From the NCBI GenBank assembly GCA_905178155.1, contig CAJINV010000040.1, positions 4,970-33,492 on the forward strand: a stretch of 28,523 nt of DNA, written 5' to 3'. The position numbers and the translations under genes were made by a program. The notes below the pieces were generated by a model. It saw only the letters and a program-made list of their open reading frames with translations, did not search any database and was not told the origin of the DNA. Origin of the DNA: Amoebophrya sp. A120 (taxonomy: Eukaryota; Protista; Dinoflagellata). Below are positions 11,160 through 28,523 of the stretch, one piece after another; the stretch's first letter is position 1; the number at the start of each line of letters is the position of its first letter.

Positions 11160-12384
11160 GTTGCGCGAGAACGAGGCCTGTGATTCGAGAAGAAATTTTT
11201 TCTTCTAATACGAGCAGCTCAATGGCAATTGTGCTCAGCTTGAAACTGTCCCTGACTGAACGCGAAGGAAATTACACTCCTTTTTTGTGATATCGATTTG
11301 TCTATTCTCCCTCCTTTTGATGGGCAAAGCGCGGAGTTGTGGAGCCCAAGTGGATGAGGCGAGGGGCGGCCAAATCTAACGAAAAACCACGTTCGCGAGG
11401 AAAGATACAAATGCGAAGGTAAAGATTCAAGCGCCTGGTCCACCTGGGGCAAAAAAGGGAGCCAATCGAAAGCCAGAGTTGACATTATCAGACTCGAAGC
11501 AGGGCACTCTCTCCCACCTCATCAGACATTGTCGCTCTAATTCTTTCTGCGTACGAGGCGTTCAACACGCAATTGCGCTTTGAAAAAAGAGCATCGCTCT
11601 GTTCCTTTCAAATTTGACACAAGGCGAAAAAACTGACGAAACGACATCGAGGGCAACGTTAGAAACCAGAGAGAAGCACGGCCAGGGTCTTTTGCCGGGC
11701 TGTTTTAGCGATCAGGAATTTGAACCTAAAAAAAAAACGATATCGCAAACTTTGTCTCCCTCGATTTCAACTAGCGCAGTGCCAGCGCTATTGTGCAAAT
11801 CGGTAGTGGTAACTCGGGTCGGGCTGTCGTGATATCCCTTGAAGCTCAATTCTTCTCTCACTTCGAACAGGAGATATACAGGTTCGGGCCCCCTCTGGCG
11901 GGACTGCTAATTCAAGTTGTCACGGAGACTCCTGTACTTCCAGCTGATAGTTCACGCAAAGTTTTTCGTTCGAGTTCTAGTTTCCACCTAGATAATGAGT
12001 GGGTTCTCTAAGATTGCCACAGATGCTGGCTGTGACAGTACAACAAGCAGGAAAAAAGCCCTTCCTGGGTATTCAAAGTCGCCACACTGGTCAGACTTTT
12101 GTCCGCTGTCTGTGAGAGAAGCTGTTACTCGCAGACGTAAACAAAATCAAAAGCAGTTTGCTTCACATAACATTTGCAGAAGTTCTGCGGAGAGGGTCAT
12201 CAGTGAAAGAGCTCTCAGTAAATCAAGCGCGTTCCTCATCAATTGGGAGTAGTCGCTATTTCACGCGAACAATAAACGAGTGAAGCACAGCGTACACGTA
12301 GTTTTCTGGAACCAGTTCGGCTATTTTGACTGATAACGCAAGAGCTCTTCTATGATCCACTAATCTTCCTCCCGCTCCCAACTC

Positions 12385-13500
12385 CTACATTTCGACGTCT
12401 TCCTCCGCCGCCTCGTCTTCCAAAAAGAACAGGTCCGCGCGGACGCAATCAACGTCCGGGTGCTTCTGGAGGTACCGACAGATTTTGCCTGCGAGGTCCG
12501 AGATTTCATTATGCAGGTTGATCCCTTTATTACGCAGCCCAGCCGCGTACCCGGGAATCACCGCTTCGCGGACGACCTGGACCATGGCCTTTCACTATCC
12601 TGAGCAAGAACGTCCCCACCCCAAAGTTGTCATGCAAATTGCGTTGGCAAGCTGTGAACAGGATAAGGACATGGATTTGTAATGCGGCTGCCACAGCGAC
12701 GGCTTCACTGCACTACCATCCAAAGCGGAATCTGTCACGTATGACTTCCAAAATTTGTGGATTTGCAGCGCAGACTGCTCATCTTGACGCTAGAGAGAAA
12801 ACGCTCTTGCAAATGATAGCCATGCGCCTTTTCTCACCTCGTCCTTGCCCGCGATTACTGTGCGGTCGACGTCGAGACGGACCGTCTTACAGGCATCCAT
12901 GCCGACTATGTCGGCCTTCTTGGTTGCGAACGTTTCCCACGTCGGGCCGGAGTCACCGGGTTCCTCCTGGTCGTTTTCCGCGGCGACGCCGCTTGCTGCT
13001 TCTGCGGGAGAAGCGGGTCGCACGTGGTGTTCACGAAAATCAATGACGAGATAGCTGATGCGCGGGTCACGTTTCAAGGCGTCCGTGGCGCGGGAGGCGA
13101 GGGCCTCCACCGCGGCCCACTCCTCCGGCTCCTTGAAAGCACCAAACTTCTCGCGGACCTGCTGCAGGACCTTGTAAAAGTCCACCGTGCGACGCCCCCG
13201 TTTGTCGGTTTTCTTCAGATCGCTGACGGGTCCTATAACGCAGCGCCTACGGGCAGCGGCCAGCCTTTTGCGCTTGCGAATCTCTTCCCTCCGCTCTTCT
13301 TTTTCGTCTAGATCCGCAAGGGTGTCGTAGATGTGATCGACAATATCTGCAGAGCACGAACTCGCCGGCGACGGCGGCGCGGAGGAACAGGATGGAGTTA
13401 CTCCACCGACACGGCGGAGCAGCCGGTCGGTACTGGTAGAGCGATCAAGGTCGCTAGAAAGATCCAGGTCAGAGTCGGTAGAAAATGAGTCACCCGCCAT
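12385..13500 (-). CDS. Hypothetical protein, 2 exons (12819-13500, 12385-12590), ~295 aa
   Basis: The 236-aa and 66-aa ORFs join in frame (VRKGAW-Q-AMVQVVREAV) when the element below is removed. Ser/Asp-rich N-terminus and a basic NLS-like RKRKR. No family recognised. Confidence 0.7.
12596..12818. mobile_element. Introner-like inverted-repeat element
   Basis: Ends TATCCTGAGCAAGAACGT and TATCATTTGCAAGAGCGT. Element plus 5 nt is 228 nt; its removal deletes the stop at 12790 and keeps frame. Confidence 0.75.
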
Positions 13501-14060: not shown

Positions 14061-14708
14061 TCACCACGTCGCATCACAATCCGCTGCCCAGCGCGCTTTA
14101 TCCTCGTCGGTCATATCTGTGAAGTCTGTCGTTGGTGAACAAATGCCGGCATACGTGGGTGGCGCAGAACAGCCCGCTACAGTCTGCGACCACTCCTGAG
14201 GGCACGGAGCTGCAAATTCGGTAGATTTGCTACTGCACGGCCATGCAGCACCGCATCTCCACGCCCAGTCGACTTTGTTGGCTAGGTCCATGGTCGAAAA
14301 GTTGCGCTCGCCACAGAAGCCTGAGTAGCTAGATCCAGGAACGCACACTGCACCGGCTGAATCAAAACCAACAGGGCAACCGCTGAAATTCATTGGACAG
14401 CCTCCTGCAAAGAGTTGCTTTCTCAGCGCAATGTGTACCGCGATAAAGCTGTCTTTTGTTAGCGCACTCAGAGCCATTTCGCTGGAGACCTGCTCGGCGA
14501 GGGATGCCGTTCCGGCTGCTATTGCCGATGCTTCATTGGCAGAGGCGTCTCCGACAGATTGCTTGTACGCGGAAGAAGATGTTGTGGCGCTTAGGATCTG
14601 GCTGAGCGTTTGGCTAGCTCCGGCAGCACTGCCAGGAAAAATAGGGTCGGCAGTAACGATACGCGATGTTATTGTGCCCAGGACCACCATCGCCGCGCCG
14701 CGCCGCAT
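14061..14708 (-). CDS. Secreted CPW-WPC domain protein (2 domains), ~215 aa
   Basis: ATG at 14708 after a T-tract; signal-like MRRGAAMVVLGTITSRIVTA. Domains CPMNFSGCPVGF...C...YSGFC...KVDWAWRCGAAWPC and APCPQEW...C.APPTYAGIC...KARWAADCDATW. Confidence 0.9.
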   Translation of the reverse strand: MRRGAAMVVLGTITSRIVTADPIFPGSAAGASQTLSQILSATTSSSAYKQSVGDASANEASAIAAGTASLAEQVSSEMALSALTKDSFIAVHIALRKQLFAGGCPMNFSGCPVGFDSAGAVCVPGSSYSGFCGERNFSTMDLANKVDWAWRCGAAWPCSSKSTEFAAPCPQEWSQTVAGCSAPPTYAGICSPTTDFTDMTDEDKARWAADCDATW

Positions 14709-14738
14709 TTTGTTCCAATGTATGGATTGCACCAGTTG

Positions 14739-14752
14739 AAAAAAAAAAAAAA
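14739..14752 (-). promoter_or_regulatory. T-tract upstream of ATG (example of a motif present before almost every array gene)
   Basis: T-runs or T-rich tracts lie roughly 15-50 nt before the ATGs at 14708, 15908, 16735, 17484, 18416, 19347, 19933, 21374, 23343, 24653, 25306 and 27672. Candidate trans-splice polypyrimidine tract or dinoflagellate TTTT-type core promoter. Confidence 0.55.
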
Positions 14753-15098
14753 CTGTTAATTCCGAACCTAGTGCAGCAATTTCGGGTTTTAGTGCTGAAG
14801 CAATTTGGCGGACCCACAAATCACAACGATTTTTGGCAGCAAAATTTGGTGCGAGTGCTCGCTCCTCTCAAATTCTGTCGAGAGCTGATGTTCCGAAATA
14901 TGGTTGAAAGACTCTGTAGCAGCGCGGCTGAGAGTATGCAGCTGCGATGTCGCACGTGCAGTGACGCAGATTTATTGCACTCTATTCAATGGATCGCGCC
15001 GCCAACCGTGGTCATTTTCACCAAGCTTGTTCCACATTTAGCTGTTTCTTGCAATGTTGCCTTTGGAGAGGCATCTCAACTTGCTACATGAAGTACGC

Positions 15099-15908
15099 CT
15101 ACATCCAGTACGCTCCGCAACGATGCTCCCACAGTGCGAGCATCTTGGCGTTGAAGCCAGTGAAATTTTGCACGTCGGTACACGGTCCAGCATAAGATGG
15201 AGAGGGTTTGCACTTATGTATTCCCGCTGGAGCAAATCCGACGGGGCATGTAGCCGAGTAGGAACGGACGCCCGAAGCACATGGCCAGGAAAATCCACAC
15301 TGTTCCTCTGCACGCATTTTTGCTTCGAGGTTCATTGCTTGAAACGAATAGGGTCCTTTGCTGCAGCTTCCTCTGTAGGTGCTGGCCATGCAGGTTCCGT
15401 TTTGCGCCACTGAGAAGCCTATTGGACAGCTTCTGTAGTCCTTGGGACAGCTCCTTATCAAACCGCTCGGCGTAGCTAAGTGTGGCCTTGGTGTGTGCGA
15501 CATCCCGATCATCATTTCCCGAAACCCGGACACTTCGCTATTCTGTGGCTCTGGCCCGGAAGGAATAGCCGAGAGGGATGAAAATAGTCCGTCCGCAGAA
15601 GAGGCTCTCCGCAAAAAACTGGTTTCATGCCATGTCGAGCGCGGACTTGTGCCCTGGCTGTAGCTTTGTTTCACCAGGATGCTTCTGCCAGAATGTACGG
15701 TGCCAGCATCCGTATGCGCTTCCCGAAGTTCAGCAGGGAATGGCGGGAACGTCCGTGATGGAATCAATTTAGAGAACAATCCGCTTTGCTGCGTTGGCGC
15801 TGCTGTGATTGGCGTAGTTGCGAGGCGGATGGCTGGCAAACGCACGGCTGCAACGGCTGTGATCCCCGGGAGTACGAGGTGCGGCAAGGTAGCGAGTCTG
15901 TGAGCCAT
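15099..15908 (-). CDS. Secreted CPW-WPC domain protein (2 domains), 269 aa
   Basis: Hydrophobic N-terminus; TSFLRR. Domains CPKDYRSCPIGF...YRGSC...KMRAEEQCGFSWPC and RSYSATCPVGF...YAGPC...WEHRCGAYW. Confidence 0.9.
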   Translation of the reverse strand: MAHRLATLPHLVLPGITAVAAVRLPAIRLATTPITAAPTQQSGLFSKLIPSRTFPPFPAELREAHTDAGTVHSGRSILVKQSYSQGTSPRSTWHETSFLRRASSADGLFSSLSAIPSGPEPQNSEVSGFREMMIGMSHTPRPHLATPSGLIRSCPKDYRSCPIGFSVAQNGTCMASTYRGSCSKGPYSFQAMNLEAKMRAEEQCGFSWPCASGVRSYSATCPVGFAPAGIHKCKPSPSYAGPCTDVQNFTGFNAKMLALWEHRCGAYWM

Positions 15909-16267
15909 TGTGATGTGCGTCGACTTGGCAGAAGAGCACTTTAATTAAACTCAAAAAAAAAACTACAACGGGAGATTGTTCTAGGATTTTTTGAGTGATC
16001 CGCACAGCTTTTATGGCAAAGGCCGATGTCTTTTCCGGTACCTTTCAGGTGGCACGCAGCACTGTCATAGGATTTTCATTTCAATCACGGCAATTTGCGT
16101 TTTCACTGACCAAATGCTTTATGACAACGATTGCAGAACAGCTGAGTTGAGAAAACGTTAGCACCTGTAGGCGATTTCCGCGCATTGTGGTCAAACCAGA
16201 AGAGCCACGCGTTTTTTATCAAAAACAAAAATCGTTTGAGGGATCAAAAGCTAGGGCATCTTGAAGC

Positions 16268-16735
16268 TTACGCACACGGAAAGGTGGCTCCACACTTCCA
16301 AGCAAAGTCTGTTTTCTGTGCGTTGGTCATACCAGAAAACGACCGCGGGCCGCAGTACCCTGTATAGGATGCCGTCGGGTAGCAGGTTCCATCAGACAAA
16401 GTGAAGCCGATGGGGCATCCAGACATATCCATGGGACAGCCACCAGCGTAAAGCTGTTTCCGCACCGCCACGTGCGCAGCAACATACGCGTCCTTCTTCA
16501 GGCTTTCCAACGCTAGAGCTGACGAAACCTCTTCTGTCAGGGCGGCCGTTCCGGCCGCGATGGCAGCAGCTTCATTGACCGACGCGTTGCCGATGGACTG
16601 CTTGTATGCCGAACTGGAGCTGCCGGCCGACATAATGCTAGCTAGACTACTGGCTGCAGCTGCAGCAGAGCCCGGGAAAATTGGATCAGCCGACGCGATA
16701 GCGGCCACCGCCGAGAGAACAGCAAGACCCAACAT
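16268..16735 (-). CDS. Secreted CPW-WPC domain protein (1 domain), ~155 aa; paralogue of 14061-14708
   Basis: Signal MLGLAVLSAVAAIASA. ADPIFPGSAA...SSSAYKQS.G.AS.NEA.AIAAGTA is shared with the paralogue; ends KTDFAWKCGATFPCA. Confidence 0.9.
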   Translation of the reverse strand: MLGLAVLSAVAAIASADPIFPGSAAAAASSLASIMSAGSSSSAYKQSIGNASVNEAAAIAAGTAALTEEVSSALALESLKKDAYVAAHVAVRKQLYAGGCPMDMSGCPIGFTLSDGTCYPTASYTGYCGPRSFSGMTNAQKTDFAWKCGATFPCA

Positions 16736-17148
16736 ATTTTTTTGGCGCAATCAAAAAAAACAAAACCAACTAAGTGACTTGATATGAGTGAAGTATAATT
16801 GCGCAATAGGCCATACGTGTGTAAAATACCAAGTTTGATTGCAGACGGCATTGGCTTTGTGCTATGCGTTCTGATGTCTTACTTGCCATCCCTCCAAGAC
16901 ACACGAGCGCGACCCCTATGTCGTCGACAAGCGAAGGCATGCAGTGCAGCAGTGGACAAGTAGTCGACACCGAGATTTGCCACGAAATACTTCTGAACAG
17001 AACTGGAGGAAGGACTTTTTCATGTGCACTGACAAGAAGTGGCTTTTCATGCCTGCATACTGTGGCTCGCAATTCTTTATCAGCGTTCTTTGCAATACTC
17101 CAATCTCAAAGGGCGAGAACAAAGACTTTACGACCCGGCATTGGTTCC

Positions 17149-17484
17149 TCAGGCGTGCAGGTGCAGCTGCACGATTGGCGACTGCGTTTTGCGCTCTGGC
17201 AGGTAGCCCCCCGACGCTCCCATGATACGCGAGACCAAACCACGCAAGAGGGCTCCTTTGCGGGCTTGCAAGAAGGAGCTTGATTGACCGGTCGTGTAGT
17301 CTACTACGGATCCTCCTGCTGCCGCAGCGGAAGCGGCCCCATTAGAGGACGCGGCCGCCTGATATGCTAGTCCTGCGGACCTGTACGCCTTGGCGGCTGC
17401 GGAAATGTCAGAAAGATCGCTCTCACGCTGAGCCGAGACAAAAACTCCCATCAGGGCGCTCAGCACGACGGCAAGGCGAAACAT
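17149..17484 (-). CDS. Small secreted Ala-rich protein, ~111 aa
   Basis: Signal MFRLAVVLSALMGVFVSA; SSFLQA; ends in beta-strand-like SPIVQLHLHA. Confidence 0.8.
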   Translation of the reverse strand: MFRLAVVLSALMGVFVSAQRESDLSDISAAAKAYRSAGLAYQAAASSNGAASAAAAGGSVVDYTTGQSSSFLQARKGALLRGLVSRIMGASGGYLPERKTQSPIVQLHLHA

Positions 17485-17795
17485 TTTATTTTTGAAAAAG
17501 CTGGGAGAAAAAAATAACTGGAGCTGTAGTGGCTTGGGTGGAAACACATACTACTTTAGTGGCAGCCTGCGTATTTTTCTGGTAGTTCTTGAAAAAGTTG
17601 AAACCGCCACGACGTCACTCCGAGCAAAAGATAGCTGCTGGCACGTCTCTCACCACCACACATTCCGCTCAACAGCACGCAGTCGAGAACGAACAGACAG
17701 AGTCACCAGCCTGTAGACGCACTAGATAACGGGGCTTCGCATTACTTTCTATATGGCGAGAATCTTCGAATCAAAACAAGGTCCATTTTAATATT

Positions 17796-18416
17796 TTAAC
17801 CCAAGGCCGAGGCGATCATACCATTTAACGCCTTGACAAATTGGATCTGCATGTCCATGATCTTGCCTTGCATGGCCACCTCTGAGGCGTCGCGGGAGGA
17901 CTCAGTGGCCTGCAAAAGATCCACGGTGGATGCCCACGGAATGTCAGACGCCTTGACTTTGACGCCGATGGAGCCGGACCCTTTTTGGAGGAAGCTGGCA
18001 TGGAGCGCACTCTTCAACTCCCCGATCACGATTTTGGCCAAGGCGCCAAACTCTGCAGTGGCCTGTGCAATGGTCTTCGATTCCAAATCTGCGCGAACAT
18101 TTTCAAAAGCAGCAACACGGCCAGCAGACGCTCCTGATTCCGGGGCGTTCATCACGCGAATGAAAACTGGCGCGCCTTGGAGAAACGAAGAATGATGCAC
18201 AACAGCGTCAATCTCCGCTTTAGCAGATGCCAGCGCTGCAGTCATGGCTTTCTGGATTCCATTCATCCCGGATGCTTCCATAGCAGACTCTGCCTTTCCG
18301 TAGGACGCGAAGCCGCTCCCGGCATCCACCGGAGGCGCTAAGGCTACCTGGATAAGCGGCTCACTGTCAGCAGCAACGCTGCCAATCAAGCACGCTGTGA
18401 GAATTTTCCCATACAT
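17796..18416 (-). CDS. Secreted protein with three strand+helix modules; resembles apicomplexan blood-stage antigen 41-3-like proteins, 206 aa
   Basis: Signal MYGKILTACLIGSVAA; EPLIQVALAPP...SSFLQ...EFGALAKIVIGEL...ASFLQ...VDLLQATESSRDASE. The family resemblance is from memory and unverified. Confidence 0.85.
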   Translation of the reverse strand: MYGKILTACLIGSVAADSEPLIQVALAPPVDAGSGFASYGKAESAMEASGMNGIQKAMTAALASAKAEIDAVVHHSSFLQGAPVFIRVMNAPESGASAGRVAAFENVRADLESKTIAQATAEFGALAKIVIGELKSALHASFLQKGSGSIGVKVKASDIPWASTVDLLQATESSRDASEVAMQGKIMDMQIQFVKALNGMIASALG

Positions 18417-18690
18417 TTTCCTGAACTGTGAGAGCAGAAAAAAAATCTACTGAGAGGAAGATGTTTATGTCTGTAAAATGCATAAAATGCACGTGTGCAA
18501 GATTTTGTAAGCTACAGTTGATTGCTCTAGTTGCAGGTTTGTTTGAACGAGTCTTGGTCTCTCAGTAGTGAACAGAACACGAAGTGGTCGCGGGACTCAT
18601 TGCTGGCTGGATCAGAAATACTTTGGACTCAAGCAGATGCGACTCAACAACATTTAACAAACACTAGCACATTCTCAACAGGTCGATGTC

Positions 18691-19347
18691 CTAGTGCGAG
18701 AGCGCTGCGGCACCGATGGCATTCAAAGCCTTCACCAGCTGCATTTCCTTTGCAAGGATCGTGGTTCTGAGCCTTGTTTCACCCGAGTCGCGACGAGCCT
18801 CCATGTCACCCAACAAGGCCGACACAGTCTTGTACGATGGGTCTGCGCCGACGCGCACGTTGATTTCGCGGGAAAAGCGCAAAAAACTTTTGCGTCCGCG
18901 TAATTGCTTGTCAAACTCCGCGATCACAACTTTGGCAACCTCTGAAAATTCCTGCTTGGCTGACGAGACCAGAGCACCCATTGCCGCAGAGCGTTTGCCC
19001 TCTAACGCCTTGACCCCGGCAACACCCGCGGACTCATCTGAGGTGGCGCCTTCAATACGAACGGAAATGACCGGCTCCGCAATGTTCGCAAAAGACGCAC
19101 GGCCCATGGCTTTGGAAATGGTGTTCCCGAGCGTTGCCGAGGCTTGGGCCAGGGTCGACTTGTACGCGGCGTCGATTTCAGCCAGGGCTGCGTGTTCAGC
19201 TGCGAGGCGGCTTGACTCTGCGGCAGCAATAGCACTTGACACCGCTGGATAAGGGGCGGAAGGGGATGCTAAACTCAATTCCACCACCGGCTTGCCAGCG
19301 CGGACCAGCACGGCACAGGCACTGAGCGTCGATAGCAGCTTTGCCAT
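18691..19347 (-). CDS. Secreted paralogue of 17796-18416, ~218 aa
   Basis: Signal MAKLLSTLSACAVLVRA. KPVVELSLASP, EFSEVAKVVIAEF, KSFLR, LLGDMEARRDSGE and MQLVKALN are collinear with the neighbour. Confidence 0.85.
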   Translation of the reverse strand: MAKLLSTLSACAVLVRAGKPVVELSLASPSAPYPAVSSAIAAAESSRLAAEHAALAEIDAAYKSTLAQASATLGNTISKAMGRASFANIAEPVISVRIEGATSDESAGVAGVKALEGKRSAAMGALVSSAKQEFSEVAKVVIAEFDKQLRGRKSFLRFSREINVRVGADPSYKTVSALLGDMEARRDSGETRLRTTILAKEMQLVKALNAIGAAALSH

Positions 19348-19648
19348 ACTTGATTTTGGGAAAGACAAGTAGATACTGATACACAAAAAAACAGAATCCT
19401 GCGTGAGGCAGAAGGACAGACGGGTTGATGGTACGGGAAATCCACGTTGCCTTTTGCGAGAATCTCCGAAATCATGCGCCAATGCGCAGGGGGGAAGATC
19501 TCTCACCACGCTCAGACACGAAACACAAACACGAAACGCCGACGCGATCCAAATCTGGGCGGAGCCAAAGCTTTTTCAATTTTTGCTTTTCAATGGAGGA
19601 AATCAAATTCTGAAGAACTACAGTCCGAGTCAGGTCATTCTCAATCCC

Positions 19649-19933
19649 CTAGCCCAAAAGGTCACGCGCGGTTGCCTCATTCATTTTTTCCATGCTGATC
19701 ATGGACTGCAGTGCGCTGTTGGCATGAGCCCGGCGCCGAGCTAAGAGTGCCAAGGTTGCTGCCTCAGATCGGCGCATCTCAGCAGAGCGCCGCGCCGCGA
19801 TTGCATCTGGAATGGCGCTTTCCAACGCAACGTTGATCACTTCAACAGGTCCAGCAGAGCCGTGGGTAAGAATGTCCTTGTATCCGAAGGCGCACCCGAT
19901 CAGGGCAAAGAACAAGGCCGCAACGCGCATCAT
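19649..19933 (-). CDS. Small secreted protein, ~94 aa, single strand+helix module
   Basis: Signal MMRVAALFFALIGCAFG; PVEVINVALES followed by an Ala/Arg-rich helix. Confidence 0.8.
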   Translation of the reverse strand: MMRVAALFFALIGCAFGYKDILTHGSAGPVEVINVALESAIPDAIAARRSAEMRRSEAATLALLARRRAHANSALQSMISMEKMNEATARDLLG

Positions 19934-20240
19934 TTGTTGTAGCTTTCCCGTTTGCAAAAAAATCCTGAAGATTCACTTCAGTCACAATAACGAGAGCAAC
20001 ATGACTCCAATCAAAATATGCGTTTTGGGTAGGCGACGAGCGATCTCTCCCGCTTGTCACTTGCTTTTTGTCCAGTCCGTTAGCGAGGAAGAAGCGACTC
20101 AGAGCAGAACAGAGAGCAGAAAAGGCCTGCAAGGCTCAGTAAAAGCGAAGTTTTTGAAGGAAATATTCACTTGAATGCGAGACATCCACTGCTATTCTCT
20201 TGAAATGCCACCCGGGATGCTGTCACGGGATTGTGAGTTC

Positions 20241-21374
20241 TTATGCACTAGGCACCTTGGCGGAGCCAGATCCAAAGTACGGCGAGTTGACAATGGAGTC
20301 CGAGCCCGTGCTGTAAATGTCAAATCCAGATGCCGTATTTTCCAAAGCCGCGAGGGAGGCCGGCGCGACCGGGCACTCTGCGGGGACGGAAGTCGATTCT
20401 TCAAAGCTGCTGTACTGCGGCGGCAGGTTGTCACTCCGCAAATACAGAGCCATGGTGCACATTGGCGGGGCAGAGACGGTGCTGCAGGTGTCAGCAATGT
20501 CTGTGATCCAAAAACCTGGGCACGCGACCAAAGTGGCGATGCAGCTTGTGAAGCAGAGTGGCAGGCGACCGACCGGAGTTGGCTCGTTGCGGGCCATTGG
20601 AGTGGAGCACCGCGGAAAAATGGCGCCGCATTGCATAGACATGTAGGTCTTGAAGCACAGAGAATACGCCGCGCTACCCGTTTTGCCAACACGGTCCTTG
20701 TACAATGCCGGAAACGAAGCAATGGTGCCATCCAACTGGGCATCAGTCACGTCAGCAGTGACAAAGTCGGCAGCAGTGATTGGGTACAACACGGAGCCGA
20801 CACAGTTGTGGCCAGTAACCATTGGCATGCAGGGAAGCGGTTGGTTCATCCACACGGGGGGCGGCACCATTGGGGGAACTATCTGCAGCACGGTGGACAT
20901 TGCAGCCTGAATCAGGCCAGCACCGGTGGCAAGACCATTCATAGCGAGCATCTGAGGCATACCGCCTGCAGCTCCCGCGGCTCCAGATTTGCTTGCTAAC
21001 TCTGCGACCATCTTGCTGACGTCAAATCCGAAGAGACGCGACACTACCCCTCCCGGGAAAGCTGAAACTCCCTTGACAGCCACCGCAGCTGGGGCGATCC
21101 CATAGTCGCAGTGCGGGGTAGACGAGCCGGTTTTGTAGTCCTGCAAAAAGGAGACAGCGGTGTCCAACATGTTCAGGTGCGTTTGGTAAGAATTCACATC
21201 AAACTCCTTGGCCATTTTGTCATAGACCTGCAAAAACGCCTGCTCCATTTCTGGAGACTGCTCTTTGAACAAGGCGATATACGCATCAGACCCGTGCAAG
21301 TTTTTGTCTGCCATCTCTTGGCTGGTCATCAGTGCGGACGCACCGATAACGCAGAGAGACGCGACCCGCAACAT
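20241..21374 (-). CDS. Secreted Cys-rich protein with Frizzled-CRD-like domain, ~377 aa
   Basis: Signal MLRVASLCVIGASA; AFLQ and SFLQ. PPPVWMNQPLPCMPMVTGHNC...CFKTYMSMQCGAIFPRC...RLPLCFTSCIATLVAC has FZ-type cysteine spacing. Confidence 0.88.
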   Translation of the reverse strand: MLRVASLCVIGASALMTSQEMADKNLHGSDAYIALFKEQSPEMEQAFLQVYDKMAKEFDVNSYQTHLNMLDTAVSFLQDYKTGSSTPHCDYGIAPAAVAVKGVSAFPGGVVSRLFGFDVSKMVAELASKSGAAGAAGGMPQMLAMNGLATGAGLIQAAMSTVLQIVPPMVPPPVWMNQPLPCMPMVTGHNCVGSVLYPITAADFVTADVTDAQLDGTIASFPALYKDRVGKTGSAAYSLCFKTYMSMQCGAIFPRCSTPMARNEPTPVGRLPLCFTSCIATLVACPGFWITDIADTCSTVSAPPMCTMALYLRSDNLPPQYSSFEESTSVPAECPVAPASLAALENTASGFDIYSTGSDSIVNSPYFGSGSAKVPSA

Positions 21375-21684
21375 GATTTGATTCTTTGTAACAAAGAAAA
21401 AAGTAGCTAAATGCGCGTTAAATGAAGAGGTAGGTTCATGACCGCTAGGAAATGCAATTGTATACATATACACAAGCCGACGAAGAAATTTGCTTCGCTC
21501 ATTGTCTCTCCACACGAATCCGCGGTTGTGCAACGAAGAACATCATGAAATGTAGAAAAAAACAAATATCACGCAAGAAAGCGGGAAGACCTAGAACGCG
21601 AGAGAGCGGTGCTTGAGCTGTTTACTTAATTGAAAACAAACGCAAAGGCCTTGGACGCGTTTTTGGAAGTCCTGATTAAGTGAG

Positions 21685-22235
21685 TTACGCACACGGGAAC
21701 TCTGCGCCAACACTCTCCGCAACGGCTTGTTTTTCAATAGCCGCCAAACCAGAAAAGGAGACACTGCTTCCAGACGCGGAGACGCAGGCATCACCCGACG
21801 GGGCCCATCCCGAAGGACAACCAGCGTAGTTGCGGGCACAGGTCACCGCCGAAAAACTTACACCTTCTGCAACAGCAGCCGCCTGGAGTGCGTCGGATAG
21901 GGTAGCCTTGATCATCATGGCCGATTCACTGGGGTGGGCCGCCTTCAAAGAAGATTCTAGACCTGAAGTGAAGAAGTAAATTTTGACTGTAAGAGTTTTG
22001 CACGGTTAATAAAGTCATCATATGTAGTCTGAAAGTTATAAACACCTCTAAGCAGTTGGAATCTTGTACCTGCCAGCGCTGGAGCGCGCAAAAACGACGC
22101 ACGATCAGCGATAACGTTCACCACGAGAACGTCGCCTTTGTTCACATCAGTGAAGATTTCTTTAGGCAGGTCGAATGGGACAGTTGCCAAGCAGGATGCG
22201 ATCCCGCAGGCGAATGCCACGACGAACGACTTCAT
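21685..22235 (-). CDS. Secreted protein with degenerate C-terminal CPW-WPC domain; 2 exons (22070-22235, 21685-21962), 147 aa
   Basis: GT-AG intron 21963-22069 (G|GTACAA...TTCACTTCAG|GT) joins ASFLRAPALAG to LESSLKAAH in frame. Domain CARNYAGCPSGW...C...EKQAVAESVGAEFPCA. Confidence 0.85.
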
Positions 22236-22548
22236 TGTGTGGGCTAGTTGTATTTGAAAGAAACGCAGCTACAGCTTTGGTAATTGCAGATGCAATGGTG
22301 ATGATGCTCGAGTTGCGTCCTCACGGTTGTACAAGCACGCCAGTTTGCTGCCGCTTTTGTTTTTGTTCATCTACACTCACCAAACAATGTGAACACACGA
22401 CTCATTGGTTTTGCAGAAAAAGAGAGCGAGTGAGCTCCGGACGTAAGCGCATTCACAGGGAATTTGATTGTATTCAGTTCAGACATGTCTGAATTGCTGT
22501 GCCTTTCCCGAGAGTCCTGCGCCCGCGAGACAAGACTGAGGAAGCGGT

Positions 22549-23343
22549 TTAGTGGTAGAGCGAACCCGCCAGGGAGTCCGCCGCCATAGCTCCAGCCTTC
22601 AACTGTGCGATCTCCTCTTCAGCCCCATAAACACGACTTGGCGACGGCAGCACGATGTTTGTGTGGCCATAGGCGCCGGTTGCAGAGTCACTAGACTGGA
22701 ACGAGACCGGCATGTTGGTCAGGAACGTGATCAAAGAACCGGCCATGTCCCTGGTGGCATCTGGGGTACTTTCCTTCTGTGCGAGATTTTTGACTTTGAA
22801 CAGGAGGGGCTGCATGGCAACGCGAGCATTGGGCAGAGAAGCAAGATCCAACAATCCTGCGACACCATGCTGTGCAGAATAGCCACCAGCGTCAACGAGC
22901 GACCCGTAGTAGCTGACTGCATCTTTGAAAACAGATCCATCTGCACCCTCACGCTGGAGATCGGATAGCGGCGTGCGCAGAAAGGATTTGTGTGCCGCGC
23001 GTTCTAACATCTGCACTTCCTGTTGCTCGACGCCAGCCAGTGCAGTTGCAGCGGCAGCACGATCAGCTGCGAGCGACGCAGACGCGGTCTCACCTACGTG
23101 CAAGTTCAACACGGGACGCTGCAAGAAGCTGTACTTTTTAGCCGCAGCGCTCATCACTGCCTCCACGCCGGCGTTGCGCAGCACTGGTTGGGCCAGCGCA
23201 GGCGCAATTTTTTGCTGAAAATCCGCGGAATTCGAGCTGATTCCAGCAGAGAGCGCCTCACCCAATTGTTCACCGACCGCGAAAGACGGCATAGCCGCCT
23301 CAGCAACGGCAGCGAAAGTGCAGGCGACGAAAAGTTTTGACAT
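22549..23343 (-). CDS. Secreted protein with two SFL motifs and a helical (ARM-like?) C-terminal region, ~264 aa
   Basis: Signal MSKLFVACTFAAVAEA; YSFLQRPVLNLHVGE; KSFLRT; C-terminal AGSLITFLTNMPV...GAYGHTNIVLPSPSRVY. Confidence 0.85.
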   Translation of the reverse strand: MSKLFVACTFAAVAEAAMPSFAVGEQLGEALSAGISSNSADFQQKIAPALAQPVLRNAGVEAVMSAAAKKYSFLQRPVLNLHVGETASASLAADRAAAATALAGVEQQEVQMLERAAHKSFLRTPLSDLQREGADGSVFKDAVSYYGSLVDAGGYSAQHGVAGLLDLASLPNARVAMQPLLFKVKNLAQKESTPDATRDMAGSLITFLTNMPVSFQSSDSATGAYGHTNIVLPSPSRVYGAEEEIAQLKAGAMAADSLAGSLYH

Positions 23344-23647
23344 CTTCCTGGCGATGATTCCACGAAAAAAAACACGACGCCAAGGACTTGTGCTACGGCA
23401 AGTCAAGCAACATTTCTCTTTGATTTCTCTTTGATTACGCGGGCTGATTCTGTCTCTTTGATTACGAGTATTGCATTTTTTGGGTGGCCGCTCGTTGTCA
23501 CGACACATGAGCACGAATTTAGGAACACATATGAACGTGAGACGCTGGAAAATACATTGTGGAAAATGGGAATCAAAAAACTATCAGGATTTCATCAGTG
23601 TATTGTCGCGTCCGATTTTTTGACACGTCACCGGTTTGGCATCCTGC

Positions 23648-24653
23648 CTATGGCGGGCTGGCCACTAACGGGCTGCCAATAACCTTGCATTTGCTGGTGA
23701 CGGCCTGTTTTGTGTAAAGGGAAGGAAATCATGGGAAAGCCTCCTGATCCGGCGCGACGCAATTAATCACAAAAGAAAAGCTACACGGATCCCCCCGTAC
23801 TAGTCTATAGAAAAAATAGCTGAATAGTGTACCTTTGTGGCCTCCCAAACCGAATCATTGATGCCCCAGACCTTTCCCATCAACGAGTGGACCGGTCCGC
23901 AAAACGGAGCGAATCTGAGCAAGCACGTGCTGGCGGTGTAAACGTCGATGCAGGCACACAGAATTTTGGTCGCAACACCCAATACATGGATTGGGAGGTT
24001 GATGGCTTGGTAGATGGCCAGGGTCGCGACACGACCGAAGTTGCAGCGGTTGCCCAGTGCCTCCACCAGCTTGCAGGACTTGGCGTCAAGGTATGCCAAA
24101 CAAAAATACCATTTCTGTCCGATTCTCAAACCGCATGTAAGCTCTAACTAAGCTCTCCGTCACTCCGTGAATACACCTGAGTTTCAGTACTGAATGCAAG
24201 AATTACATTGTTGTCTGGGCATTTTGGTAGTTTTGTTTATGATAAAAAGCAGGGCGCGTCCATCATTGGAACAGCAGACGACAAGGTGCTGCGCTCTTTC
24301 AAAAAGGCGCTGTGGGTTGCCTGGAACTCAGCTAGCGCCGTGGTCGGGTCCTCATGCTCCACAGCGGCTTGGAATTCCTTCATTTTGTTGAAAGTGTCAG
24401 CGGTTTGTTCCTGAAGTGCAGACAGGACCGTTTTGCCATCCTTCTGTGCAGTCGACATCACGGAATCCCAGTACTTCACGCATTCCGCACCACAGTCCTT
24501 GCTCAACACCTCGCGGACCTCATTCAGCTTATCCAGCGGCACCTCAGTGTGCTGTGCAGGGAGGGACAGCAGACGGTTCCCCGCGGTGATCCGCTGCGAC
24601 ATGGACAGAGCGCTGGCGCCCGCCACAACCGTCAAGGATACAGCAACTTTCAT
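23648..24653 (-). CDS. Secreted Cys-rich protein, 3 exons (24245-24653, 23833-24086, 23648-23704), ~239 aa
   Basis: Signal MKVAVSLTVVAGASA. The introner-like intron ~24087-24244 and GT-AG intron 23705-23832 give DAPCF(Y/D)AKSCKLVEALGNRCNFGR...LCAC...CLLRFAPFC...WEATK-AVTSKCKVIGSP. Confidence 0.78.
24092..24244. mobile_element. Introner-like inverted-repeat element
   Basis: Ends TATGCCAAACAAAAATACCA and TATCATAAACAAAACTACCA. Removing element plus 5 nt joins ORF 24237-24653 to the frame of ORF 23800-24129. Confidence 0.82.
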
Positions 24654-24919
24654 CTTAGTGTCTCAGTTTGGAAAAAAAACGCACTATTTGGGAGACGAAT
24701 GCGTTGGAAAGACTCAATGATTGACTTGGAGGGTTTGGCCATTTGATTTTGACAAAAGACCGGAAGAGCAAAAGCCATTTTGGTGCGGTCGCGCCCAGAC
24801 GAACACATCATGACGACATAAGGCATGAAGGACCAGTTTGGGTCTCTGTGTAGGTTAGTTACTAACTTTTATCAGGAGACTGTTATTGTCACTTGTTTAC
24901 ATTGTTGGAGTGCCACTGT

Positions 24920-25306
24920 TTACACGCGCAAGCTAGCGAGACCCGCAGAAAAGGCTTGCATATCATAAGCAGCTTGGCTAGAGTCAGCGACGGAGGAAGC
25001 CGACGCAGTAAACTCAGGGCGTTTCTCCACGATGTTGACCTTCGCCGGAGAGTCGGTCCGCATTGGCTGCGTCAAAAACAAAGCCTCCTTGACCATGCCT
25101 GGAGATCCGGCCCACGCAGCAGCCCCAGTTTTAAGGAAGGAAGTTTTGCCCATGACTTGGGAGTGCATGAACGCCTGAATGCGAGCCTCCAATGCAGCAA
25201 TGTCTTTGGCGCTTGCTGTCAGGTGTCCCGGGCCAGCAACTTTGATGGACTCTGCAGTGCAGCAGGCAAAAAAAGCCGCAACCGCGATAAAGAGTGTACG
25301 CAGCAT
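24920..25306 (-). CDS. Small secreted protein, ~128 aa
   Basis: Signal MLRTLFIAVAAFFACCTA; TSFLKT; PAKVNIVEKRP followed by a helix. Confidence 0.82.
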   Translation of the reverse strand: MLRTLFIAVAAFFACCTAESIKVAGPGHLTASAKDIAALEARIQAFMHSQVMGKTSFLKTGAAAWAGSPGMVKEALFLTQPMRTDSPAKVNIVEKRPEFTASASSVADSSQAAYDMQAFSAGLASLRV

Positions 25307-25654
25307 TCTTCGCAAGAAGTTCTAGTTTCAGGTTCTCTATTCAAAAAAAGTGCTACAAGATTAAGAGGAGACCGTGCAATGTTAGTCAAGCAGACAGTGT
25401 TGTAGTAAAACGTTAGGCGACGGCAGCTTTGGCATCAGGTTTGAGTGCACAGCATTCACTCCGCTCTGGACGTATCCGAGTCCTAGCCTGTCTCTCAAGG
25501 CAGCGTCGAACGAACAGAATGATTGAGCAATGACGTTCGAGGCTACACAGCCCAGCGAAGAATCTGAGGAGTGGGGTTCTCTATTCCAACTTAGAAACGA
25601 GTGCACTAGAAGAGTCACGCTTAGCTGCGGTAATCAGGCGACACAGGTTGCTGC

Positions 25655-26212
25655 TTAGTACGCGACATCGCAGAAGATCTGCGCTTCTTGCTTCTCCGCG
25701 ACGCTCAGGTCAGACGGCAGGCCTCTGGTGCAGAAACCCGAGTAGCTTCCGGTAGGATTGCACGTTCCCGCGGTCTCCACCCATCCAGACGGGCAGGTAG
25801 CGGTCGGTCCAGTGAGTCCAGAGAGCTTAGTCGCGGCCGCCGCAACCTGTTGGGCAATTGTGGACAAATCACCGCTGGACAGTCCGGTCAGCTTCAGAAA
25901 GCTCGCAGCACCCGTGGAGTAAGGCAAAGTAAACTTGCCGACGGTCGTGGGCGACGACCCCATTGCGGCTTTCACCGCTGCTGTGAGCTGCTTCTCCTCC
26001 GGCGATGACGGAGCGGCAGCAGCAAACGCTTCAGCGCCCGCGAGTAAATCTCCGGTCACCCCTCCCAACTTCGCATCCGACGGCATGGTGGCAGCAGTCA
26101 ATCCAGCTGCACCTCCTCCAGACAGCGAGCCGATAAGCCCCGACGCTGCCGACGCGCTGTCCCTCACTTTGAGGGCGGAGGCGGCTCCAAAAAGGCAGAA
26201 AACAACGCGCAT
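25655..26212 (-). CDS. Secreted Ala/Gly/Ser-rich protein with C-terminal CPW-WPC-like domain, 185 aa
   Basis: Signal MRVVFCLFGAASA; ASFLKL; TCPSGW...C.PTGSYSGFC...EKQEAQIFCDVAY. Confidence 0.85.
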   Translation of the reverse strand: MRVVFCLFGAASALKVRDSASAASGLIGSLSGGGAAGLTAATMPSDAKLGGVTGDLLAGAEAFAAAAPSSPEEKQLTAAVKAAMGSSPTTVGKFTLPYSTGAASFLKLTGLSSGDLSTIAQQVAAAATKLSGLTGPTATCPSGWVETAGTCNPTGSYSGFCTRGLPSDLSVAEKQEAQIFCDVAY

Positions 26213-26553
26213 GTTGCTCGACTAAAAGGTAAACTAGATTTCTTGGTTCTAAATTTTGTTGGTCATGGACACAATGAGGAGAAAAATAATCCAGGTGGCC
26301 GTTTAGATTCCAATCTCTCCGCGAAACAGCATATGACGAGGACTATAAATTTGCTTACCACATTTGTTTCTCATCACTCAGCGATTGGGGTGATGACGAC
26401 TCATATAGAACACAGAAGAAGAAACTATTTTGATGGAGCGCATGAAGAACTCACGAAGCAGAGTTGAGATTTCAAAAGCGAAACATAGACGCGTTTTTCA
26501 TCAGTCAAATGTAGGAAGGTCCGCTCGAGCGGCTCCGGGCGCCAAGGAGAGAT

Positions 26554-27672
26554 TTAGCGCAGCTGTGACTGCAAGCTGGAAATGGCCTGCATCTCACCCT
26601 TGACAGCTGCGATATCTGCACCGGAGACGAAGGTCGGAGTCTCAATGTCCACGTTCAGCACCGGAGCGGAGCGCGGCACATCATCACCACTCAGGAAGGA
26701 GCTGTGGGACATTTCAGCTTCCAAGCTAGCGAGGCGCTTGGCCGCGTACGCAAATCCGTCAGCCGTCAGGCGTGCCATATCTACCTTCTTGCCCTTTGAA
26801 GCGGAGTCAACCATCACGTGCACAGTCGGCTCACGGGAAGGAGAGGCCTTCAAGAAGGACGCGCCCAAAGCAGCGGAGCGAATGGCTTGGAAGGATTTTT
26901 CAATGCTCTGCTCGAGCGACGTCTTGATGGATTGGTACTCACTTTCCAGGACCGAGGCCGGGGCACCTGCTTCAAAGTACACGTCAGTCTTGCCCTTTTG
27001 CAGAAAGGACGCGGCTTTCAACGCGGCCAACTCCTGGGTGAACCCTGCATGTGGCACGTCATAGTGGATGTCGATCACAGACGGGAGCGAGGCCTGCATG
27101 GTGGACTGAATGGCAACTGGCGGCACGAAAGGCTCCAGAAAGCTGGACTTGCCGCGCACGATCCGGCCGATCTTCGCGATCTCTGCAGAGAGCATAGCCT
27201 GCTTGAGGGATGCGTCCGCGGCAGCTTCGGCCGACGACTTTGCAGATTCAGTTTTGAAAATAGACGAGACGGCAGCGTCAACCGACGCCTTGTCTTCAGC
27301 AGGAGCGTGCAACACGAATTCATGATCCGCAGCTGGAGCGAGCGACGAATAACCCTGGAGAAACGAGTGATGCGCGCCAACGATGCTGTGAACCTTGGCA
27401 ATCTCTGCGTTCAGAAGACGTTGCTTGTCCGCTAGCCCCGCCGCTTCCAGACCCTTTTCATGGGCCTTCTCAACAGCCATCAGCGCATCAATGTCAGCGT
27501 TTGCCTCGGCAGATGGCATGGAGGGGGGCATCAGGTTCAAAGTGTAAGGAGTCGCGTCGGCGGCCTTACCCGCAATGCCCGATGCCACACCCGGCGGCAC
27601 CATTTCCAGCGGGTCAGGGAACATCCGCGCACCATGAGCGCACAGGGAAGTCGCTGCAAGCACACGAAACAT
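26554..27672 (-). CDS. Secreted polyprotein-like protein with five SFL motifs and internal repeats, ~372 aa
   Basis: Signal MFRVLAATSLCAHGA; SFLQ, SFLE, SFLQ, SFLK, SFLS. Modules 1 and 2 are homologous (KQRLLNAEIAKVHSIV vs KQAMLSAEIAKIGRIV). Confidence 0.88.
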   Translation of the reverse strand: MFRVLAATSLCAHGARMFPDPLEMVPPGVASGIAGKAADATPYTLNLMPPSMPSAEANADIDALMAVEKAHEKGLEAAGLADKQRLLNAEIAKVHSIVGAHHSFLQGYSSLAPAADHEFVLHAPAEDKASVDAAVSSIFKTESAKSSAEAAADASLKQAMLSAEIAKIGRIVRGKSSFLEPFVPPVAIQSTMQASLPSVIDIHYDVPHAGFTQELAALKAASFLQKGKTDVYFEAGAPASVLESEYQSIKTSLEQSIEKSFQAIRSAALGASFLKASPSREPTVHVMVDSASKGKKVDMARLTADGFAYAAKRLASLEAEMSHSSFLSGDDVPRSAPVLNVDIETPTFVSGADIAAVKGEMQAISSLQSQLR

Positions 27673-27957
27673 CTTGTTTCTGTGACTAACAAAACAAAGA
27701 AAAAGATTCACTACAAGGATCACACGCTTCAAATAAGCATTGCAGACCACATCTGGGAGCTCGCGAAGTTTGGTAGGCCTTTTGCATTTGCGCTCATTAT
27801 TTGGGGCAACGATTTGCGCTCATTTTGTAACGTTTGAACAAAACGACACTCAAAGGAGTGGATCTCAGACCTTTTGTCGCGGTCCGTCAGAAAACTCTGA
27901 TTCAATCATTTGCACTGATATTCACGCACAAGTCCGCGTTGCTCTTGGATCATCAGT

Positions 27958-28523
27958 TCAGCATCCTCCCGGACAGGACGCAGCCGCCGAGGCGTAGGTC
28001 GGGTGCGGCCGGGGGGCATGCTCCATACCCAACATCATTTCCCGGAAGGCAGCCAAGCCCGTGGTGTCCGGCTGCGGCGGGACCGGGAGACTTCCCATGG
28101 CGCCCAGAATCGCATCGCCTTTGCGCAGAAAACTGGAGGGAGTGAGCGCCGCCAGAAGGGCCTGCAGGTGTTTTTGAGTACAGAGTGAGTATGTTATTTT
28201 TCCCGAGCAGAAAAATGTGTGAACAAACGAGCGACGAGAAAATGCAGATTCACAAAGAAAGAGTATTATACTTTATCAGAACGCAACTCCTGAGCCGCCG
28301 CAGCGATACGATTGTCCAGCGCCAAGCCGCTTTCCATGGACGACATGGCCGAAGCCGCGTCAAAGGCCGGGAAGTGGTACCGGACGTTCACTTCTGGCAG
28401 GCTGTGGGCAATTTCACCAGTGAATTCTGCTTTTTCAGCCGGGAGGCCGTAATTTCCGGGGGCCGTCGGCGAGTTAAACGCCGTGAAGCCAGCGACGAGC
28501 GTCGCGCACGATGCAAAAACAGT
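27958..28523 (-). CDS. 5'-truncated secreted protein, 2 exons (28272-28523+, 27958-28161); absent from the ORF track
   Basis: Open frame TVFASCATLVAG...PEVNVRYHFP...RSDK, then GT-AG intron 28162-28271, then ALLAALTPSSFLRKG...FREMMLGMEHAPRPH...SCPGGC*. Homologous to FREMMIGMSHTPRPH in 15099-15908. Confidence 0.8.

Follow-up and report, generated by a model that had tools for sequence, protein, structure and literature searches.

Malaria parasites cannot be transmitted without the crystalloid of Plasmodium. It has been described as a putative secretory organelle (PMC11285972), and its LAP3 interactome was reported to include CPW-WPC proteins, antigen 41-3 and PBANKA_0620300 (PMC7487766). In dinoflagellates, described tandem arrays consist of multi-copy, intron-poor, co-oriented copies of one gene, and polyproteins are cut into units (PMC11453091); the same source cites the mycosporine-like amino acid (MAA) sunscreen cluster of Symbiodiniaceae, a small, metabolic but conserved functional cluster of unrelated genes. 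Here we analysed a 28,523-nucleotide stretch of Amoebophrya sp. A120 DNA (the window), which carries a cluster of 15 minus-strand genes (g01 to g15 in transcription order, positions 14061-28523). Unlike the tandem arrays, its relatives repeat a 12-gene unit of several unrelated families; unlike the MAA cluster, it encodes secreted, probably structural proteins and extends from Syndiniales to probable core dinoflagellates. The gene set recurs in changed order in distant relatives, in related proteins some of its members are fused into polyproteins, and three of its families have homologues in the crystalloid interactome. We conclude that several unrelated families are kept together here in a conserved cluster that exists in multiple copies. 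Their products probably make up the contents, matured by a protease, of a single secretory vesicle or organelle that is related to the crystalloid of Plasmodium.

The genes are closely spaced (all 14 intergenic gaps are 266-413 bp, median 310 bp, with g05 counted as three exons) and the 5' end of g01 is open at position 28523, in agreement with an earlier note on this DNA, which had described a co-oriented array running off the window edge. The density of ~1,040 genes/Mb is about four times the genome average (232-273 genes/Mb in Amoebophrya, PMC7789003). Signal peptides were assessed with a crude hydrophobic-core test other than SignalP. The test was passed by 13 of the 14 complete genes, compared with a background of 1-3% (24 passes among 2156 internal windows and 33 among 1048 taken from the helicase next to the cluster), confirming the signal-peptide-like starts; g14 missed narrowly, and the start of g01 lies outside the window. 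The gene downstream of g15 (13500-12385) failed, marking the 3' border of the cluster. No strong transmembrane stretch and no C-terminal endoplasmic reticulum (ER) retention tetrapeptide was present in the g01-g15 proteins, and an Rfam scan gave 0 hits. The co-orientation is unremarkable, because the two other genes identified in the window also lie on the minus strand; as the earlier note had stated, unidirectional blocks are the dinoflagellate norm, and 98% of Amoebophrya genes are reported to lie in them (PMC7789003).

The CPW-WPC assignment was borne out by Pfam (CPW_WPC, PF09717), which scored above cut-off for g03, g13, g14 and g15 and marginally below it for g07 (22.4 vs 23 bits). The proposed 41-3-like pair was likewise confirmed. 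A g10/g11 profile retrieved 353 proteins at E ≤ 0.001 among 1.84 billion, including a named Plasmodium 41-3 at E 2.7e-17, and hhalign gave 97.8% over 199 columns for g10 against Plasmodium 41-3. Module-module similarity resolves the 41-3 family into three repeats of a ~60-aa strand-plus-helix module, and the first piece of g02 is a distant module of this type (module hidden Markov model score 17.8 bits, shuffle maximum 8.1).

For g08, 113 homologues were found, including sequences from Amoebophrya, Polykrikos, Cyclospora, Besnoitia and Plasmodium. The P. chabaudi homologue P0143 (XP_733365.2, 554 aa; 37% identity over 320 aa) agrees with P. berghei PBANKA_0620300 in its N-terminal signal-peptide text and its mass of 63.4 kDa, which points to g08 as a likely orthologue of PBANKA_0620300. 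The Frizzled-like label given to g08 in the earlier note stands only as a weak likeness, with all matches at E ≥ 0.05 (Pfam Fz E 0.079, ROR2 E 0.051, and Foldseek rows at E > 1 from a model with a predicted local distance difference test score (pLDDT) of 54). The g05 family comprises 96 hits, with coccidian homologues (Toxoplasma, Hammondia, Besnoitia) at E about 1e-23 and no Plasmodium row among the 96. This family may resemble Plasmodium PSOP13. Homologues of g05, g08 and g10 are present in an Amoebophrya transcriptome set.

AlphaFold models were of low confidence (pLDDT 53.8 for g08, 59.5 for g10); Foldseek searches with the models of cluster proteins gave nothing at E ≤ 0.001, and sequence searches of the PDB gave matches only at E ≥ 0.05. 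No Pfam hit was obtained for g06, neither g06 nor g02 drew a usable match from the ESM Atlas, and named relatives of g04, g06, g09 and g12 were found in no search made. Within the cluster, g13/g15, g10/g11, g01/g14 and g02/41-3 form paralogous pairs or groups; g01 shares a region with the upstream part of g14 (blastp E 4e-13), without a CPW-WPC domain. By this comparison, the cluster consists of at least five unrelated families, and is neither fifteen orphans nor one array. The earlier claim of several unrelated families thus holds, with fewer families than were apparent, given the 41-3-type module of g02 and the region common to g01 and g14.

To follow the gene set in other genomes, a metagenome scan with the g08 alignment was used, yielding 70 loci (L-numbered), 23 of which had at least 700 bp of flank and were collapsed to 16 groups, not all phylogenetically independent. 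A second family of the set lay beside the g08 homologue in 10 of the 16 groups (E ≤ 1e-4). Three assemblies (L025, L032+L031 and L040/L042) each carry 12 genes in one cyclic order, with a GC content of 60-68% and no introns seen. L025 consists of 12 secreted-protein genes separated by 212-423 bp. Ten of these match the window at E < 1e-4, and in the reverse comparison, within a small database, 11 of the 15 window genes find a partner in L025. Identities are 26-48%, and the gene order differs from that of the window. The end of L025 repeats its start in a 141-nt terminal overlap, and L040 differs from L042 only by circular permutation of one 11,759-bp unit; as assembled, the unit is a head-to-tail repeat or a circle. 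In a tree of 57 chosen rows of g08 homologues, the loci with 12-kb units fall into a clade with Polykrikos (support 100/99) apart from Amoebophrya, and the window g08 groups with Amoebophrya (99/97). The lineage of the 12-kb units is probably core dinoflagellates.

Smaller loci show further linkage. Homologues of g03 adjoin g08 homologues in L001 and L002, and L002 holds a g02 homologue (46%). This g02-like gene (L002 340-798) lies beside the g08 homologue on the opposite strand, a case of linkage without co-orientation. The intron-rich L059 has CPW-WPC, g07-like and weak g06-like matches near g08. Gene k6 of L025 (5210-5677) is also kept in L032 and L040, and none of the 15 window genes matches it convincingly; a counterpart may lie beyond the window edge. 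Separately, g14 and g01 share DNA similarity (repeat D11, 15480-15524 and 28003-28047) at a spacing of 12,523 bp, near the 11.8-kb unit of the relatives, and the window may represent one unit plus part of a second, diverged unit.

Synteny in other Amoebophrya, a check proposed in the earlier note, revealed linkage of g08 and g10 homologues. In strain A25 they lie 1-4 locus tags apart on four scaffolds, with a fifth g08 copy lacking a g10 partner among the hits, and in AT5 two tags separate them. By tag number, the g05 and g08 homologues of AT5 are 86 apart. In A120, three scaffolds, none longer than 72 kb, carry g05 copies, and a g08 paralogue with 64% identity lies on a scaffold of 13 Mb.

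Members of the set also occur fused to each other. Five proteins (P0121, P0148, P0155, P0158, P0187) join an N-terminal g09 to g10, and the g11-type P0161 carries g09 at its C-terminus. Further fusions combine 41-3 with g07 (P0151), g04 with 41-3 (P0171), and 41-3 with g02 (P0173, P0195, P0260), and 7 of the 96 g05-family hits combine CPW-WPC with g05. Some of the fusions join neighbours and may simply stem from adjacency.

The link to the crystalloid rests on three unrelated families, namely CPW-WPC, antigen 41-3 and g08 (the likely PBANKA_0620300 orthologue), all of which have homologues in the LAP3 interactome; as in the cluster, these Plasmodium proteins all have signal peptides, and 41-3 retains the SF motifs described below. 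Four of the Plasmodium CPW-WPC proteins were reported to localise to crystalloids (PMC7487766). Because of the changed-order clustering, the amplification as a unit, the fusions and the meeting of three families in one organelle complex, the idea of a gene set for one secretory structure, raised in the earlier note, is strongly and independently supported. As judged from gene content and homology, the cluster is real, deeply conserved, amplified and multi-family, is tied to the crystalloid complex, and is a variant of eukaryotic functional gene clusters. No prior description of it was found in the open-access literature (subscription papers and bioRxiv supplements lay outside the search), and PMC6176090, PMC12246861 and PMC10624901 contributed nothing on it.

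A tripeptide motif, SFL, suggests that the proteins are processed. It occurs at 17 sites in 11 of the 15 proteins, against a shuffle mean of 1.09 and a maximum of 7 in 5000 shuffles (~16-fold enrichment). The fourth residues give 7 SFLQ, 1 SFLE, 5 SFLR, 3 SFLK and 1 SFLS. The sites are placed between modules, and both SF sites of g10 align with the SFLQ and SFLE of Plasmodium 41-3. Plasmepsins X and IX (PMX/PMIX) were reported to cleave after SFIQ, SFLE, NFLQ, SFLD and SFVQ (PMC7146544). Like the cluster proteins, their substrates carry an S-F-hydrophobic-x tetrapeptide between modules of secretory proteins, and the SFL sites are predicted cleavage sites. In contrast to those substrates, the fourth residue is K or R in 8 of the 17 sites, for which reason the protease specificity could differ from that of PMX/PMIX; the window itself carries no gene for such a protease. 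Plasmepsin VI was reported in the LAP3 interactome (PMC7487766), with a sporulation defect (PMC2658712).

In the mechanism that we propose, each gene would give rise to its own, probably trans-spliced, mRNA, and the signal peptides would direct the products into the ER. A plasmepsin-type aspartic maturase would then cut after S-F-L-x, releasing 45-90-aa strand-plus-helix modules (of the 41-3, g02 and g09 type) and Cys-rich domains (CPW-WPC, g05, g08), which would co-assemble into a condensed vesicle matrix. Clustering would allow the whole parts list to be duplicated as one block, raising output without separating the parts at times of bulk production. For Amoebophrya, spore formation is the most plausible such time. 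Animal histone-gene repeats, in which a whole stoichiometric parts list is repeated as one unit, offer an analogy, as do ciliate trichocysts and mucocysts, whose granule lattices form from protease-processed precursors; no sequence relationship to either was found, none having been directly sought.

Several points weigh against a crystalloid-related organelle. The identification of g08 with PBANKA_0620300 rests on the N-terminus and mass rather than on full sequence. 41-3 and PBANKA_0620300 are listed as pull-down partners rather than by localisation. The interactome, for which only proteins with signal peptides were kept, also contains surface and microneme proteins (P25, P28 and CTRP; PMC7487766). 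The LAPs, core crystalloid proteins, are reported to be absent from dinoflagellates (PMC11285972), Pfam detected no LAP/LCCL, NTH, PH-like or TPM genes among the 15 cluster genes, and no report of a crystalloid in Amoebophrya turned up in the literature searched. Judging by their IDs, the Plasmodium homologues lie on different chromosomes, so that clustering is unnecessary there. The SFL sites that end in K or R depart from the Q/E/D found in the cited PMX substrates. SFL is missing from g09, g13 and g15, and g05 shows only AFL. No second family was detected at E ≤ 1e-4 in 6 of the 16 flanked groups, which are mostly short or intron-rich, one having CPW-like matches at E 0.001-0.04. The placement of the 12-kb units rests on one gene tree and one named core dinoflagellate. 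The adjacency in A25 and AT5 is weak evidence alone, because gene order is in general well conserved between Amoebophrya strains (64% of homologues, PMC7789003); the same source reports no correlation of function or expression within the co-oriented blocks of A25 and A120.

Rather than a crystalloid-related matrix, the set could encode the core of a trichocyst or other ejectile extrusome, a bulk crystalline matrix cut from precursors, the crystalloid being a derived remnant. We consider this unlikely. To our knowledge, apicomplexans keep these families yet have no trichocysts. A bulk matrix would be in keeping with the amplified genes and with precursors predicted to yield short, helical and mostly acidic peptides, many homologues lie on transcript-sized contigs (four with a spliced-leader remnant), and Amoebophrya is reported to make trichocysts at the sporont stage (PMC9478091). 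However, candidate matrix proteins of Oxyrrhis were found by similarity to Paramecium trichocyst matrix proteins (TMPs; Rhiel 2018, cited in PMC8285334), and the cluster gave no Pfam hits to ciliate TMPs, direct TMP sequence comparison not being part of the analysis.

An ordinary co-oriented block, formed by local duplication of one or two secreted families and kept in order by slow rearrangement in Amoebophrya, without common function, is quite improbable. The prevalence of such blocks, the high synteny (PMC7789003) and the paralogous pairs listed above would fit it. However, at least five non-homologous families (CPW-WPC, the 41-3 module, g05, the g06 domain and g08, plus g12) recur together in a distant high-GC lineage in another order, cross-family fusions occur, and three families meet in one Plasmodium complex. 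This explanation is therefore already weakened. It is very unlikely that the products instead form a cyst-wall or cell-coat layer outside the cell: the proteins are all soluble and predicted to be secretory, their Cys-rich domains are of the disulfide type, and the crystalloid itself has been called secretory, but the localised Plasmodium CPW-WPC proteins are in crystalloids (PMC7487766), and no wall-protein or adhesion-repeat Pfam hits were obtained in the cluster. Extrachromosomal circles or a mobile cassette spreading the set, with the window as an integrated copy, would accommodate the circular assembly of L025 and L040/L042, the many homologue-bearing contigs near unit length, and the copies on several small scaffolds in A25 and A120, but we hold this to be extremely unlikely, as the unit is filled by its secreted-protein genes with no replication or mobility gene identified, no g08 relative was found in scans of viral and prokaryotic contigs, the g08 tree is compatible with vertical descent, and tandem arrays, common in dinoflagellates, yield an identical assembly pattern.

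Beyond the protease-matured cargo that we favour, it is possible, though we would stop short of calling it probable, that an ancestral secretory organelle of myzozoans gave rise to the malaria crystalloid, the matrix of this organelle being encoded in dinoflagellates by an ancient cassette of about a dozen genes, amplified in its entirety like the histone repeat. If so, the cassette would represent a LAP-independent crystalloid core, plasmepsin-type maturation of 41-3 and its partners would be predicted, and a homologous organelle, possibly an extrusome, would be pinpointed in cultivable dinoflagellates. The cluster could bear on crystalloid function and origin. Through guilt by association, it ranks core members of the interactome, proposes the families of g02, g04, g06, g09 and g12 as new members, and yields predicted processing sites. 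In dinoflagellates, where co-oriented blocks are reported to lack functional order, it is an opposing case. It also brings a repeated unit of several families to a group whose known arrays repeat single genes, and would give conserved 'dark' genes a common function.

The operon-like, co-regulated character suggested in the earlier note did not fare as well as the idea of a secretory gene set. Co-orientation was rejected as operon evidence, since nearly all genes lie in such blocks, and the published analysis of A25 and A120 reports no evidence of polycistrons (PMC7789003). Intergenic k-mer enrichment yielded only T-runs as a shared upstream motif. DinoSL trans-splicing is reported in Amoebophrya (PMC7789003), and 12 of 14 genes have a candidate acceptor (Table 1), counted in cluster genes only, with no genome-wide control. 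Four contigs with g08 homologues (L004, L018, L024, L054) open with a spliced-leader remnant 22-50 nt before the ATG, and are mature trans-spliced mRNAs.

Table 1. Genes and candidate splice acceptors of the cluster (window coordinates).
Feature	Position	Strand	Description
g01	27958..28523	-	5'-open; exons 28523-28272 and 28161-27958, putative GT-AG intron; 1 SFL site
g02	26554..27672	-	372-aa predicted secreted polyprotein; five SFL sites giving 44-90-aa pieces
g03	25655..26212	-	185 aa; signal peptide; SFL site; one degenerate CPW-WPC domain (Pfam E 1.1e-5)
g04	24920..25306	-	128 aa; signal peptide; SFL site; orphan; weak match to L025 k5 (E about 1e-3)
g05	23648..24653	-	239-aa Cys-rich helical secreted protein; three exons
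g06	22549..23343	-	264 aa; signal peptide; two SFL sites; C-terminal domain that is conserved and fits no known family; L025 k8 match (41%, E 1e-19)
g07	21685..22235	-	147 aa; exons 22235-22070 and 21962-21685, putative GT-AG intron; SFL site; short CPW-WPC domain; best match L025 k2 (E 7e-15)
g08	20241..21374	-	377 aa; signal peptide; SFL site; Cys-rich, weakly Frizzled-like domain
g09	19649..19933	-	94 aa; signal peptide; single strand-plus-helix-like peptide
g10	18691..19347	-	218 aa; antigen 41-3 family; three ~60-aa strand-plus-helix modules parted by SF motifs
g11	17796..18416	-	206 aa; 41-3 family paralogue (31% to g10); two SFLQ sites
g12	17149..17484	-	111 aa; signal peptide; SFLQ site; L025 k10 counterpart (E 7e-6)
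g13	16268..16735	-	155 aa; one CPW-WPC domain; g15 paralogue (58%)
g14	15099..15908	-	269 aa; atypical leader; SFL site; two CPW-WPC domains; L025 k11 counterpart
g15	14061..14708	-	215 aa; two CPW-WPC domains; L025 k1 counterpart; last cluster gene
YAG + T-tract	14061..28523	-	24-57 nt upstream of ATG in 12/14 genes; candidate individual trans-splice acceptors

The Cys-rich helical protein of the earlier note is g05, whose gene model was short of two exons. A single-exon gene was rejected in favour of a model set by comparison with a homologue (exons 24653-about 24248, about 24089-23833 and 23704-23648), the spliced product of which agrees with the Amoebophrya sp. A120 records P0389 (100 of 100 residues) and P0391 (199 of 200). 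Intron 1 (about 24090-24248, 158 nt) is non-canonical and has a 14-nt terminal inverted repeat with arms at 24098-24111 and 24225-24238. Amoebophrya introners are defined by non-canonical ends and an 8-20-nt terminal inverted repeat (PMC7789003), and by its ends and inverted repeat intron 1 is of this kind. Longer upstream starts were rejected for the open reading frames at 23508 and 21467 (g08); in both cases a downstream ATG gives a signal peptide, and for g08 it also matches the homologues.

Outside the cluster, the minus strand carries a multi-exon Strawberry-notch-like helicase gene at about 5300-11200 (Pfam AAA_34 E 1e-42, Helicase_C_4 E 2e-45) and, bordering the cluster at 12385-13500, a gene that is probably two-exon, with no Pfam match or signal peptide. 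At about 300-2370, the window contains degenerate direct repeats with ~1.05-kb and 0.5-kb spacing that are 79-91% identical.

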